Of a stretch of 64,000 nt of DNA, positions 52,012-63,586 are shown in pieces. The notes below the pieces were generated by a model, which saw only the letters and a list, made by a program, of their open reading frames with translations, was not told where the DNA came from and did no database searches. Source of the DNA: Alphaproteobacteria bacterium (GTDB lineage: Bacteria > Pseudomonadota > Alphaproteobacteria > SHWA01); assembly GCA_009693995.1 (NCBI GenBank), contig SHWA01000001.1, positions 6,377 to 70,376 on the forward strand, in the 5' to 3' direction. The stretch's first letter is position 1; each line of letters starts with the position of its first letter. A program made the translations under genes and the position numbers.

Positions 52012-53031
52012 ATGGTGGGGGCCGGCCTGCGTACGCCGATCTGCCGGCGCCTCGGGATCGAGGTGCCGGTGTTCCAGGCCGGCATGGGGTTCGTCGCCCG
52101 CGGGGCGCTCGCCGGCGCCGTATCGGCGGCGGGGGGTCTCGGCGTGATCGGCGCCGGATCCACCATGAGCGCGGCGGAGATGCGGGCCGAGATCCGTACC
52201 GTGCGAAGCCTCACCGACCGGCCGTTCGGCGTCGACGTCCTGTTCGCGACCGTGGGCTCGAGCGGCACCGAGACCGCGCGTTACACCGACACGGTGCAGG
52301 CGATCCTGGAGGTGGTGCTGGAAGAGCGCGTGCCAGTCCTGATCTCCGGCCTCGGCAGCCCGCGCAATGTGGTGCCCGCGGCGCACCAGCGCGGCATCTT
52401 CGTGATGGCGGTGGTCGGCGCGGTGCGCCACGCCGTCAAGGCGGTGGCCGATGGGGTGGACGCGGTGATCGCCTCGGGCGCCGAAGGCGGCGGCCATGTG
52501 GGGCGGGTGGGGACCGCGGTACTGGTGCCGGCCGTGGTGGACGCGGTGCGGGTGCCGGTCCTCGCCGGCGGCGGCCTCGCCGATGGTCGCGGGCTCGCCG
52601 CGGCCCTCGCGCTCGGCGCCGAGGGCGTCTGGATGGGGACCCGGTTCGTCGCGGCCCTGGAGGCCCATGCCCACGCCAACTACAGGAACGCGATCGTCGC
52701 CGCCGACACCACCGGCACCGTCGTCACCCGCGCCCACAGCGGCAAGCCCTGCCGCGTGATCGAGAACGACTACACCCGGCACTGGCAGGCACACGAGGCC
52801 GAAATCCTGCCGTTTCCACTGCAGGCGCTCCGGTTCGGCAACCCGGCTTCCGAGCGCGGTCGGCTGCAGGGCGACGTGGCGAACGGCGTCTTGCCGGCCG
52901 GCCAGGGATGCGGCCTGATCCACGCCGTGAAGCCAGCCGGCGACATCGTCCGCGAGATCGTCGCCGAAGCTGGTGCCGTCCTCGACCGCCTCGCCCGCCT
53001 GCGCGGTCCGACCGGGAGCAGCGAACCATGA
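52012..53031 (+). CDS. Nitronate monooxygenase (NMO / 2-nitropropane dioxygenase family, FMN TIM barrel)
   Basis: 339 aa from ATG 52012 with GGAGGAGG RBS; FQAGMG… and …ASGAEGGGH… motifs. Confidence 0.85.
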   Translation: MVGAGLRTPICRRLGIEVPVFQAGMGFVARGALAGAVSAAGGLGVIGAGSTMSAAEMRAEIRTVRSLTDRPFGVDVLFATVGSSGTETARYTDTVQAILEVVLEERVPVLISGLGSPRNVVPAAHQRGIFVMAVVGAVRHAVKAVADGVDAVIASGAEGGGHVGRVGTAVLVPAVVDAVRVPVLAGGGLADGRGLAAALALGAEGVWMGTRFVAALEAHAHANYRNAIVAADTTGTVVTRAHSGKPCRVIENDYTRHWQAHEAEILPFPLQALRFGNPASERGRLQGDVANGVLPAGQGCGLIHAVKPAGDIVREIVAEAGAVLDRLARLRGPTGSSEP

Positions 53032-53843
53032 GCGACTATTGGATTCCAGCAGACGATCTCGGCCTCAGGGATCGGGTCGCCATCATCGCCGGCGGCGGCG
53101 CGGCGGGAGATGGCATCGGCAACGGCCGCGCCAGCGCCATCCTGCTCGCGCGCGCCGGCGCCCGGGTGCTGGTGGCGGACCGTGAGGTCACGCTCGCTGA
53201 GCGCACCGCAGAGATGATCGCGGCCCACGGCGGTACCGCGGCCGCACACGCCGCCGACGTGACCGACGGCGAGTCGTGCCAAGCCATGGTCGAGACCGCC
53301 CTCGACCGCTTCGGCCGGGTCGATTTCCTGGTCAACAACGTCGGCATCTCGAGCCGCCGGAGCGTGGTCGACGAGGAGCAGGCCGAGTTCCAGCGCGTCA
53401 TGCGCATCAACGTCGAGGGCATGTTCCTGGCCGCCAAGCACGCGATCCCCGCCATGCGCGAAACGGCCGGCGGCGGAGCGATCGTCAATATCGCCTCGAT
53501 CGCGGCGCTGCGCCCGCGCGGCGCCACGGCCTATTCCGCCTCCAAGGGCGCGGTGATCGCCTTGACCCGCGCCATGGCGGTCGATCACGGGCTGGACGGC
53601 ATCCGCGTCAACTGCATCGCACCGGGCCCCGTCTACACGCCCATGGTGATCCGCGGCGGCATGCACCCGGAGGCGCGTGAACGCCGGCGCCGCGCGTCGG
53701 TCATGGGCCGCGAGGGGAGTGGCTGGGACGTCGGCAACGCGGTCCGCTTCCTGCTCTCCGACCATGCCCGCTACATCACCGGGCATACCCTGGTCGTCGA
53801 CGGTGGCACCACCTTGATCGGCCCGGCGCGCCACTATCGCTGA
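53028..53843 (+). CDS. SDR-family oxidoreductase (copy 1)
   Basis: 271 aa; start overlaps NMO stop (ATGA); YSASK catalytic motif. Confidence 0.85.
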   Translation: MSDYWIPADDLGLRDRVAIIAGGGAAGDGIGNGRASAILLARAGARVLVADREVTLAERTAEMIAAHGGTAAAHAADVTDGESCQAMVETALDRFGRVDFLVNNVGISSRRSVVDEEQAEFQRVMRINVEGMFLAAKHAIPAMRETAGGGAIVNIASIAALRPRGATAYSASKGAVIALTRAMAVDHGLDGIRVNCIAPGPVYTPMVIRGGMHPEARERRRRASVMGREGSGWDVGNAVRFLLSDHARYITGHTLVVDGGTTLIGPARHYR

Positions 53844-53869
53844 GCAACTGGAGAGGGGAGAAATCAGCC

Positions 53870-61848: not shown

Positions 61849-62682
61849 ATGCACCTGAGCGATGCCCAAATTCAGCAATACGATGACGATGGCTTTGTCA
61901 TCCTGCCCGGTTTCCTGTCACCGGAAGAAGTCGGTTTGCTCGCCGCCGAGGCGGATATCCTCGGCACGCCGCAACGCGGCCTGCCGGACGGAAACGTCTA
62001 TGAATACGGGAGCGGAATGATTCGTAAGAGCTACTCCGTGGACAAGGATTCGGAAGCGTATTTCCTGGCCAGCCGCCTGCCGCGCATGCTCGTGCCGTCG
62101 CGCCAGTTGCTCGGCGAGCGTATCTATCTGTACATGACCCACATGAACCACAAGATCGCCAAAAAAGGCGAGATTTGGTTGTGGCACCAGGACTACTCCC
62201 ATTGGCAGTTGGACGGCGTCGCGCGCGGCGGAGCGCGCGACATGGTGACGATCATGATCATGGTCGACAAATCGACGCCCGAGAACGGGCCGCTGCAGAT
62301 CCTCAAGGGCTCGCACAAACTGCCGGTGGAGGAATTCAGGATCGATCTCGACGAAACCAGCGTGCCGACCGCCAAGGTGAGCGAAGCCCGCATGGCGGAG
62401 ATCGTGAAATCGCACGAGATCGTCGAATGCCTGGGCGCGGCCGGGACAGCGCTCGTCTTCGCTCCCATGACCATCCACGGGTCGGCCAGGAACAACTCGA
62501 CCCGCACGCGGCGGAACGCTTATTTCGTCTACAACCGCGTCGACAACCGCCCCACCATCGAGAAGCCGAGACGCTTCCACGTTTCACCGCACCTGATGAA
62601 CAGCGATCCCGTGGAACTGGACACTGGCGTCGGTGACGACGCTCTCCTGGCGCTCGCCCGCCGCCGGCTGTCCGCCGCCTAG
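61849..62682 (+). CDS. Phytanoyl-CoA dioxygenase (PhyH) family Fe(II)/2-oxoglutarate oxygenase, EctD-like
   Basis: 277 aa; AAGGGAG RBS; WLWHQDYSHW (His-x-Asp) and distal His (TIHGS). Confidence 0.8.
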   Translation: MHLSDAQIQQYDDDGFVILPGFLSPEEVGLLAAEADILGTPQRGLPDGNVYEYGSGMIRKSYSVDKDSEAYFLASRLPRMLVPSRQLLGERIYLYMTHMNHKIAKKGEIWLWHQDYSHWQLDGVARGGARDMVTIMIMVDKSTPENGPLQILKGSHKLPVEEFRIDLDETSVPTAKVSEARMAEIVKSHEIVECLGAAGTALVFAPMTIHGSARNNSTRTRRNAYFVYNRVDNRPTIEKPRRFHVSPHLMNSDPVELDTGVGDDALLALARRRLSAA

Positions 62683-62752
62683 CCGTCGTCGCCAAGCCGT
62701 GCGGCAACGAGTTCCGGGAAAAGGGCAGCCCTTCCCGGAGGGTATGACAGGC

Positions 62753-63586
62753 ATGCCGCTTTCGGCGGATGACATCCAACACTACGACGAGAACGGCTAC
62801 CTGATCGTCCCCGCCGTGCTGACGGCGGACGAGGTGCGCCTGCTCCAGGCGGAGGCCGCGCGCCTCGCCACCCCGGCACGCGGCCACAGGGACGCCAACG
62901 TCTACGAGAAGCACAACCCGGTCATCCGCATGAGCTTCGCCGCCGAGATCGACTCGGAGGCGTTCGCGCTTCTCTACCGGCTGCCGCGTCTCCTGGGGTG
63001 CGTGCAGCAGCTCCTGGGGGAGAGCGTCTATCTCTACCAGTCGCGTATCAGCCACAAGGTGGCGCGGCTCGGCGAGGTCTGGCTCTGGCACCAGGACTAT
63101 GGCGGCTGGCGCAACGACGGCCTGCCGCGGACCGGGGAGCGGGACATCCTCTCGCTCTCGGTGATGATCGATCAATCCACGCCGGACAATGGCTGCCTCC
63201 GGGTGGTGCGCTGCTCGCACCTCATGGGCGCGCTGGATTCGCGCTTCGACGACGAGACCGCGAGCTACCCGACCCACGTCACCGACCCCGCCCTGATGGC
63301 GCGGTTCGCGGCGGAGGGGCGGATCGTGGACGTGGTCGGCCCGCCGGGCACGCTCGCCTTCATGACCGGGCTGACGGTGCACGGCTCCGAGCCGAACCGG
63401 TCGGACGCGGGGCGCCGCAGCCTGTTCCTGATTTACAACCGCACCGACAACCGCCCCTCCGGCAGCGTCCGCCGCGAGCACAAGAGCCCCTATGTGATGA
63501 ACCGGAATCCGGTCGAACTGGCCGCGGTCGACGACCAGGCCCTCGCGCGCCTGGCGCGAGCCGTTGCCACCGAATCTCCCGCCTAG
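62753..63586 (+). CDS. PhyH family Fe(II)/2-oxoglutarate oxygenase (paralog)
   Basis: 277 aa; GGAGGG RBS ~10 nt upstream; WLWHQDYGGW and TVHGS motifs; ~50% identical to preceding gene. Confidence 0.8.
   Translation: MPLSADDIQHYDENGYLIVPAVLTADEVRLLQAEAARLATPARGHRDANVYEKHNPVIRMSFAAEIDSEAFALLYRLPRLLGCVQQLLGESVYLYQSRISHKVARLGEVWLWHQDYGGWRNDGLPRTGERDILSLSVMIDQSTPDNGCLRVVRCSHLMGALDSRFDDETASYPTHVTDPALMARFAAEGRIVDVVGPPGTLAFMTGLTVHGSEPNRSDAGRRSLFLIYNRTDNRPSGSVRREHKSPYVMNRNPVELAAVDDQALARLARAVATESPA

Follow-up and report, generated by a model that had tools for sequence, protein, structure and literature searches.

The oxygenase cluster and its three predicted units

The stretch of DNA analysed here (the window, 64,000 nucleotides at positions 6,377 to 70,376 of contig SHWA01000001.1, assembly GCA_009693995.1) comes from an uncultured alphaproteobacterium and carries, at positions 52012-63586, a cluster of oxidoreductase genes that includes two different Rieske oxygenase systems and a pair of Fe(II)/2-oxoglutarate (2OG) hydroxylases of the PhyH family. 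Raw lists of open reading frames (ORFs) were unusable because the G+C content of the window is about 70%; genes were called by third-position GC (GC3), and each call was checked by Pfam/NCBIfam family search. The inventory of eleven oxidoreductase genes in the initial annotation held up, with respect both to the families and to the coordinates, which agreed to within a few bases. The genes, together with the intergenic region between two of them, are as follows.

52012..53031, plus strand: nitronate monooxygenase-family FMN enzyme (NMO), 339 aa, first gene of group 1 (PF03060, 227 bits)
53028..53843, plus strand: short-chain dehydrogenase/reductase (SDR) oxidoreductase copy 1, 271 aa (PF13561 and PF00106)
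53870..54685, plus strand: SDR oxidoreductase copy 2, 271 aa (by family search; 82% amino acid identity to copy 1)
54703..55266, plus strand: carboxymuconolactone decarboxylase / AhpD-like protein (CMD), 187 aa (PF02627, E 9e-11)
55285..56169, plus strand: luciferase-like (LLM) oxidoreductase, 294 aa, last gene of group 1 (F420-type, TIGR03619)
56183..58234, minus strand: single-subunit molybdopterin oxidoreductase (Mo enzyme) of the dimethyl sulfoxide (DMSO)-reductase superfamily with an N-terminal 4Fe-4S domain, 683 aa (PF04879, PF00384, PF01568)
58235..58445, no strand: divergent intergenic region of 211 bp between the Mo and RHOa genes (presumed promoters, by position only)
58446..59792, plus strand: Rieske oxygenase alpha subunit (RHOa), alpha-beta type, 448 aa, of an uncharacterised clade (PF00355 and PF00848)
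59761..60258, plus strand: Rieske oxygenase beta subunit (RHOb), 165 aa (PF00866, 130.6 bits)
60371..61807, plus strand: alpha-only Rieske oxygenase (RO2), MdpJ-like / phthalate family, 478 aa (PF00355)
61849..62682, plus strand: Fe(II)/2OG hydroxylase PhyH1, PhyH family, of a rare EctD/GriE-like clade, 277 aa (PF05721)
62744..63586, plus strand: second PhyH-family hydroxylase, PhyH2, 280 aa (PF05721; 46% identical to PhyH1)

The genes do not form the single plus-strand array that had been proposed, since the minus-strand Mo gene, which is convergent with the LLM gene and divergent from the RHOa gene across the 211-bp gap, divides two plus-strand, operon-like groups. The first of these consists of five genes (NMO, the two SDRs, CMD and LLM) spaced by -4 to 26 bp, the stop of the NMO gene overlapping the start of SDR copy 1 by 4 bp; the second consists of the five genes from RHOa onwards, with gaps of -32, 112, 41 and 61 bp. 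A consensus promoter/terminator scan and two Rfam scans gave nothing useful: neither a promoter nor an Rfam match came up for the intergenic region, and no riboswitch for the cluster. The block containing the Rieske and PhyH genes is lower in G+C (0.656-0.671 over 58-64 kb, i.e. positions 58001-64000) than the window mean of about 0.70, which fits a later acquisition of this block. Megablast comparison of the 11.6-kb cluster with plasmids yielded a single 50-bp match only.

We describe the cluster in terms of three predicted units. Unit A (52012-56169, plus strand), comprising NMO, the two SDRs, CMD and LLM, encodes enzymes for redox steps that depend on flavin or NAD(P). Unit B is the minus-strand molybdopterin oxidoreductase gene, which stands alone and whose product is predicted to be cytoplasmic. 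Unit C (58446-63586, plus strand) places four O2-activating enzymes in a row, i.e. the alpha-beta Rieske enzyme, the MdpJ-like alpha-only Rieske enzyme and the two EctD/GriE-like hydroxylases. Sequence alignments reveal that the oxygenases of unit C have all their catalytic residues intact.

The oxygenases of unit C

RHOa can be aligned along its entire length with HcaE and with the biphenyl (BphA), benzene and naphthalene (NDO) dioxygenases (E 1e-65 to 1e-93), with 37% identity to Escherichia coli HcaE and 31% to NdoB, and its best plasmid-borne matches are Rhodococcus aromatic dioxygenases at 43.6% identity. By contrast, its match to CntA and Stc2 is confined to the N-terminal Rieske half (E 1e-17 to 1e-25), and its score with the GbcA model NF058607 is 120.9 bits against a cut-off of 670, so that the kinship to GbcA, CntA and Stc2 suggested by the initial annotation does not hold for RHOa. 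The HcaE model NF042946 is also failed by RHOa (359.5 bits vs a cut-off of 830); RHOb passes the HcaF-subfamily model NF007479 (153.8 bits vs 145). On the question of whether the alpha subunits cluster with classical aromatic dioxygenases of known substrate, the result is divided: RHOa does lie inside the alpha-beta superfamily, but near no enzyme of known substrate, and it appears to represent a deep clade of the classical alpha-beta dioxygenases. At least 66 proteins in metagenomes, with 55-71% identity, belong to this clade.

The equivalents of C81, H83, C101, H104, D205, H208, H213 and D362 are kept in RHOa and in all 66 of these clade members. The substrate pocket is where the clade departs from the characterised enzymes: the positions equivalent to NDO F352 and L307, which are Phe and Leu in both NDO and HcaE, are Gln and Asn, invariantly so in the 66 members, and the equivalent of NDO W358 is Ala or Val. 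This mapping used ungapped local alignments anchored on the FPN motif and on the iron-ligand Asp. One of the closest known systems is E. coli HcaEF (PDB 8K0A; PMC12445004). With HcaEF and the Rhodococcus angular dioxygenases the window enzyme shares the alpha-beta architecture, the overlap of the alpha and beta genes (32 bp here, and likewise in the orthologous loci L092 and L093) and all of the cofactor ligands; it differs from HcaEF in the Gln/Asn pair in place of the pocket Phe/Leu, in its modest overall identity and sub-threshold HcaE score, and in an operon that has neither hcaC/hcaD-type partners nor an hcaB-type dehydrogenase. With GbcAB, CntAB and Stc2 there is likeness in general Rieske oxygenase chemistry only, plus a possible amine-type substrate suggested by the neighbourhoods of relatives; those enzymes are alpha-only, belong to another clade and normally have an adjacent reductase, and the window proteins match them in the Rieske domain only.

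RO2 is an alpha-only enzyme that has the Rieske and mononuclear iron motifs and is similar along its whole length to the members of a large family, which gave 7678 matches of about 450-495 aa at E<=1e-10. In an alignment of 14 family members, C91, H93, C110 and H113 of the Rieske centre and D199, H202, H207 and D356 of the iron site are invariant. The basic C-terminal stretch of about 70 residues, which had been singled out as an extension, is not one: the C-terminal 70 residues align through 13 family members that measure 460-492 aa, the MdpJ-type gene of Methylibium among them, and R458 does not vary; the tail is therefore a family feature. Nor is RO2 kin to GbcA, CntA or Stc2, as had also been suggested, since its score with the GbcA model NF058607 is 19 bits (cut-off 670) and its matches to CntA and Stc2 reach only about E 1e-4. 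Its best solved match is phthalate dioxygenase 7FJL (E 8e-46, residues 39-317), i.e. phthalate 4,5-dioxygenase (PMC12445004), which is likewise alpha-only; the alignment, however, fades in the catalytic domain, leaving RO2 residues of about 320-478 unaligned, and the window has no phthalate-pathway context.

The nearest named relative of RO2, at 43% identity over 95% of its length, is a Rieske gene on the megaplasmid of Methylibium petroleiphilum PM1 that is followed by a PDR/VanB reductase gene, a pair that we take to be mdpJ/mdpK, encoding the tert-butyl/tert-amyl alcohol monooxygenase. The substrates of MdpJ are aliphatic alcohols. Several RO2 homologues that are closer than the PM1 gene are named 'tert-butyl alcohol monooxygenase' by the Joint Genome Institute. 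RO2 resembles MdpJ/MdpK (Aquincola tertiaricarbonis L108, Methylibium PM1) in length class, in the Rieske and iron motifs and in the conserved C-terminal tail, but differs in having no PDR/VanB reductase gene behind it. Because 43% identity also matches hundreds of uncharacterised paralogues, the MdpJ substrate is not transferable to RO2. A literature search on details of the mdpJ/mdpK locus returned nothing useful.

PhyH1 and PhyH2, which score 104-105 bits with PF05721, are older paralogues, as their identity of 46% indicates. The HxD...H triad (H113, D115 and H210) and the Arg that binds 2OG (R221) show no variation among 17 sequences. The best solved matches of the pair are EctD and the leucine 5-hydroxylase GriE (E 1e-26 to 1e-30), with which they share the PhyH fold family, the triad and the 2OG-binding Arg. 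Both nevertheless fail the EctD model TIGR02408 (PhyH1 99.9 bits and PhyH2 119 bits vs a cut-off of 336.5), and the pair is not EctD; in further contrast to it, the locus has no ect genes and the window pair falls in a clade of its own. That clade is rare, since an exhaustive HMMER search of 1.84 billion representatives returned only 14 cluster representatives at E<=1e-30 for PhyH1. The 'phytanoyl-CoA dioxygenase' structures 7DZZ, 7E00, 8H7T and 7DT0 also match the PhyH proteins, and a literature search on these four codes yielded nothing useful. Judged by sequence, then, the outcome is the same for RO2, RHOab and the PhyH pair, namely that general family features are present and specific equivalog cut-offs are failed.

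The initial annotation had noted that the window contains no ferredoxin or reductase for the Rieske enzymes, and this is confirmed. Among the roughly 60 GC3-called ORFs of the window that were scanned against Pfam, none encodes a ferredoxin of the Rieske or plant type, a PDR/FNR-type reductase or a GR-type reductase, and tblastn searches of the window gave no match with NdoR, NdoA, MdpK or a plant-type ferredoxin as query, nor with NahC or catechol 2,3-dioxygenase. The sole [2Fe-2S] proteins of the window are a CoxS-type subunit (4075-4578), which adjoins a xanthine-dehydrogenase-family large subunit, and the N terminus of SoxA. Neither the window nor any locus with a RHOa orthologue contains an extradiol or intradiol ring-cleavage dioxygenase or a hydratase-aldolase, and the RHOa-orthologue loci have no NdoR-, NdoA- or MdpK-like electron-transfer gene and no gene resembling NahC or catechol 2,3-dioxygenase. 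Among 80 RO2-homologue loci from GTDB species representatives, a clear MdpK-like reductase lies within 10 kb in four, with weak partial matches in three more. To be without adjacent partner genes appears, on this sampling of loci, to be the usual state for both Rieske families. Both Rieske enzymes would thus take electrons from a reductase, or from a ferredoxin and a reductase, whose genes lie in other parts of the genome, and the PhyH enzymes would use 2OG as co-substrate.

Relatives of the oxygenases and possible roles of the island

The gene set is reproduced by none of the relatives examined, and it is not conserved, because the closest relatives of each gene (65-83% identity for single cluster genes) sit in unrelated neighbourhoods. 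The RO2 relative at 70% identity is followed by a biotin-dependent carboxylase and a tripartite ATP-independent periplasmic (TRAP) transporter, that at 68% is flanked by TauD, a second RO2 paralogue and EamA, and that at 65% by RidA, EamA, and transketolase plus aldehyde dehydrogenase. No RO2 relative above 51% identity occurs in the GTDB species representatives, where 80 homologues (41-51% identity) show no linked PhyH pair, RHOa or Mo homologue. The same RO2-PhyH1-PhyH2 order is found on a 2-kb Logan contig identified via PhyH1, and genes identical to those of the window are present in the sequencing run SRR8561391. One locus in which RO2, CMD, SDR and RHOab homologues lie within 8 kb (L065 10001-18136, Pseudomonadota XB_MAG556) was considered as a counterpart and set aside; with identities of only 34-41%, it was read as convergent, not orthologous.

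PhyH1 relatives at 75-83% identity are single copies, located beside an amine oxidase or beside TauD and UPRTase. Other relatives occur with succinate-semialdehyde dehydrogenase, a major facilitator superfamily (MFS) transporter, GntR and opine-oxidase-like genes, or with GntR only, and further distant ones with LLM, SnoaL and SDR genes. In a separate locus (L089 5292-10365), a 45% PhyH relative forms part of a trio of PhyH, an enzyme dependent on pyridoxal phosphate (PLP) and resembling serine hydroxymethyltransferase (SHMT), and PhyH, beside DAO and a glutathione-dependent formaldehyde-activating enzyme; by analogy, this layout is reminiscent of the hydroxylase-aldolase steps of trimethyllysine/carnitine chemistry.

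The RHOab orthologues (67-71%) have their own recurrent context. In four loci (L113 5657-13893, L097 8346-13993, L099 4724-10270 and L100), RHOa and RHOb are followed by a FadH/old yellow enzyme (OYE) Fe-S flavoprotein of 688 aa, and in the three of these where the flank was recovered (L113, L097 and L099) an ABC-transporter gene lies upstream; the importer could be typed as PotABCD-like (polyamine) in L113 only (PotA 391 bits vs a cut-off of 356). In L096 (9890-15624), the genes behind RHOab encode a 4Fe-4S protein, an aldehyde:ferredoxin oxidoreductase with both AFOR_N and AFOR_C, and a Pyr_redox_2 protein, an AorABC-like arrangement. One further orthologous locus contains an LLM gene, a Mo-oxidoreductase (39% identical to that of the window), OYE, a PhyH of another subfamily, an ABC importer and N,N-dimethylformamidase, and another contains GMC, Ldh_2, a Mo-oxidoreductase and a CoA-transferase. 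Across the oxygenase-type relatives, the recurrent neighbours are a PotABCD-type importer, amine oxidase, DAO, the SHMT-like enzyme, RidA, amidase, aldehyde dehydrogenases and sarcosine oxidase (sox)-like genes. A literature search for Rieske enzymes tied to polyamine transport found nothing relevant.

We tentatively read the cluster as a lineage-specific catabolic oxidoreductase island of three transcription units, rather than as a conserved pathway, with polar, non-hydrocarbon substrates for unit C, and give this reading a little less than an even chance. The mosaic and lineage-specific character is indicated by the contexts of the relatives, the affinities of the Mo and LLM genes (see below) and the lower-G+C block taken together. 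The polar, non-ring substrate is suggested by the polar pocket residues, the relationship to MdpJ, the lack of ring-cleavage genes and the amine- and amino-acid-related neighbourhoods of relatives. Unit C would then most likely hydroxylate or dealkylate small polar substrates, whether amine- or amino-acid-derived compounds or aliphatic alcohols and acids, rather than aromatic hydrocarbons, and one common substrate for all the enzymes of the island would not be required. For the oxygenases, a polar and possibly nitrogenous substrate seems plausible.

Several points weigh against this reading. The two operon-like groups were deduced from gene spacing alone, and the argument for a polar substrate draws on two pocket positions mapped through an alignment at 31-37% identity, and RHOa still belongs, by its sequence, to the classical aromatic dioxygenase superfamily. 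An aromatic pathway could make use of the SDR and CMD genes. Of the 70.7-kb source contig, about 6.6 kb lie outside the window, and a reductase could be encoded there. The neighbourhood evidence is one of association, and comes from relatives rather than from the window locus.

The foremost alternative is classical aromatic-acid catabolism, in which an HcaEF-like enzyme would form a cis-dihydrodiol, an SDR would re-aromatise it and CMD, NMO and LLM would act later, with the ring-cleavage and electron-transfer genes located elsewhere. The full-length match of RHOa to HcaE, BphA and NDO, the RHOb score above the HcaF-subfamily cut-off and the Rhodococcus dioxygenases as best plasmid matches all speak for it, as does the presence nearby of two SDRs and a CMD, a 49%-identical CMD of Agrobacterium vitis lying in a cluster of aromatic-catabolic appearance. 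However, the A. vitis SDR beside that CMD is not orthologous (32% identity), and the window SDRs, which are only 26-28% identical to NahB, lie in a transcription unit separate from that of RHOab. The RHOa clade is invariantly polar where NDO and HcaE have Phe and Leu, its members adjoin polyamine-type importers rather than aromatic-acid transporters, and ring-cleavage dioxygenase, hydratase-aldolase and ferredoxin/reductase genes are missing from the window and from the RHOa-orthologue loci alike. We therefore regard an aromatic-acid pathway as unlikely, though it is the alternative that we take most seriously.

The initial annotation had instead proposed a single stepwise pathway for the demethylation or hydroxylation of a quaternary amine or osmolyte, leading on to sarcosine oxidase. 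A single pathway is difficult to reconcile with the differing neighbourhoods in which the relatives of RO2 (65-70%), PhyH1 (75-83%) and RHOa (67-71%) are found, the gene set being conserved in no relative examined. Moreover, the sarcosine oxidase genes, described as adjacent, are not so: the minus-strand genes soxBDAG span 35793-41033 (soxB 704 bits vs a cut-off of 529), i.e. 11 kb or about ten ORFs from the cluster, on the opposite strand and beyond a stretch of unrelated and partial-looking genes. GbcA, CntA and Stc2 are not relatives of either Rieske alpha subunit, the PhyH proteins fall below the EctD cut-off, and the cluster has no transporter or regulator and, in the Rfam scans, no riboswitch. 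What lends the proposal some credit is that the oxygenase relatives occur beside the PotABCD-type importer and FadH/OYE, N,N-dimethylformamidase and amine oxidase, and the PhyH relatives with DAO, the formaldehyde-activating enzyme and the PhyH-SHMT-like-PhyH trio, as well as with RidA, amidase and sox-like genes; the window itself holds soxBDAG, hydantoinase and carbamoylase genes. The part of the proposal that stands is thus that the substrate is probably no classical aromatic hydrocarbon, given the lack of ring cleavage, the Gln/Asn pocket and the amine neighbourhoods; the part that does not is the kinship to the named demethylases. As a whole, we consider it doubtful, and its chances poor. 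That the enzymes instead tailor a small molecule in biosynthesis is very improbable, for although the closest Mo relatives (55-59% identity) lie in a biosynthetic-looking cluster on Streptomyces and Agrobacterium plasmids, and GriE-type PhyH and SxtT-type Rieske enzymes serve biosynthesis, the partner genes of that Mo cluster are all missing from the window and the window scans found near the cluster no enzyme that would form a scaffold, for instance a nonribosomal peptide synthetase, polyketide synthase, terpene synthase or ATP-grasp ligase.

Returning to the reading of a lineage-specific catabolic island, the cluster is best described as an ordinary, uncharacterised breakdown island with no recognisable new betaine-type pathway, because it is a patchwork of three groups that are found together only in this genome. 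As such it is one more oxygenase-rich catabolic island of an uncultured alphaproteobacterium, and shows how freely such genes are shuffled. The analysis has a useful by-product in the RHOa clade, a branch of the 'aromatic' alpha-beta dioxygenases that has many members, is uncharacterised and shares a conserved polar pocket. We put forward as a long shot that this clade is a widespread alpha-beta Rieske family acting on polar nitrogenous substrates rather than aromatic rings; its substrates could be polyamine- or N-alkyl-amine-like compounds that are cleaved to aldehydes. Consistent with this are the invariant Gln and Asn, the recurrent association with PotABCD-type importers, FadH/OYE, and aldehyde-oxidising and pterin enzymes, and electron donors that would be encoded elsewhere. 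The combination of a RHOa-clade enzyme with an MdpJ-like oxygenase and a rare EctD-like pair could even amount to a new pathway for a compound of the amine or osmolyte type. Were the clade to act on amines or other polar metabolites, the annotation of many genes from marine and soil metagenomes as 'aromatic ring-hydroxylating' or dibenzofuran dioxygenases would be mistaken, which matters in that such dioxygenase genes often serve as markers of pollutant degradation.

Units A and B and the surrounding genes

The Mo enzyme of unit B has the Fe4S4, molybdopterin and molybdopterin guanine dinucleotide (MGD)-binding domains that characterise the DMSO-reductase superfamily, and no specific equivalog model of NCBIfam reaches its cut-off. 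Its N terminus, read straight from the sequence, is MAIEQKVRGACPLDCPDTC, with the Fe4S4 domain beginning at residue 5; there is no twin-arginine signal, and the enzyme is therefore predicted to be cytoplasmic. Among solved structures, acetylene hydratase and polysulfide/thiosulfate reductase come closest. The plasmid-borne cluster that harbours its closest relatives, in A. vitis and Streptomyces, is a different, conserved one. In two such loci (L118 6191-12127 and L119 6361-12059) the Mo gene stands with genes for an iron-containing redox enzyme, a 2OG-Fe dioxygenase, a DapF-like epimerase and an aldo/keto reductase, and an EamA transporter gene is close by; this common set looks like a horizontally shared small-molecule cluster. 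A bis-MGD Mo-oxidoreductase is present near RHOa in three of about eight contexts (the window, L092/093 and the P0134 locus), its identity to the window enzyme being measurable for L093 only (39%). We considered the Mo enzyme and RHOab as a conserved pair, and rejected this on the grounds that the closest Mo relatives belong to an unrelated cluster.

Within unit A, the NMO product is assigned to PF03060 only, and not to the FabK enoyl-ACP reductases, because its score with TIGR03151 is below the cut-off (276.4 vs 453.1 bits). The two SDR genes are a tandem duplication, their likeness being confined to the coding region, from ATG to stop codon. CMD has a weak match to the peroxidase-related family TIGR01926; a conserved SDR-CMD pair, suggested by the A. 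vitis cluster, was rejected owing to the non-orthologous SDR there. LLM passes the TIGR03619 cut-off (246.4 vs 166.9 bits). Its best plasmid matches are from Actinobacteria only (36-48% identity), and its best metagenomic relatives, at 51-53% identity, are Dehalococcoidia genes, affinities that are unusual for an alphaproteobacterial metagenome-assembled genome; the window showed no genes for F420 biosynthesis.

The 11 kb between the sox genes and the cluster contain genes for an SDR, a NIPSNAP protein, a PehA-like sulfatase and an RTX protein, partial-looking TRAP and MFS transporter genes, and family-less ORFs. The sulfatase was considered as a choline sulfatase, but fails that model. Directly upstream of the cluster (48842-51970, GC 0.67), the transporter genes appear incomplete: DctP covers profile positions 130-281 only, the best DctM stretch of a fused DctQM, for which two stretches are reported, covers profile positions 6-175 of 413, and an MFS_4 ORF, which overlaps the end of DctQM, is matched in its N-terminal half only. 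The partial genes and the lower GC suggest rearrangement or gene decay in this region.

Amide and N-methyl catabolism is richly represented in the left and middle of the window, apart from the oxygenase cluster: over 12575-16823, 29164-32033 and 34541-41033 lie genes for hydantoinase/oxoprolinase A and B, for two amidohydrolases and for an amidase of the hydantoinase/carbamoylase family, as well as soxBDAG. Downstream of the cluster, a PlsC-type acyltransferase frame (63673-64000) has an in-frame TGA at 63862-63864, between the NHTSFLD and FPEGR motifs, and could represent a pseudogene or an assembly error.

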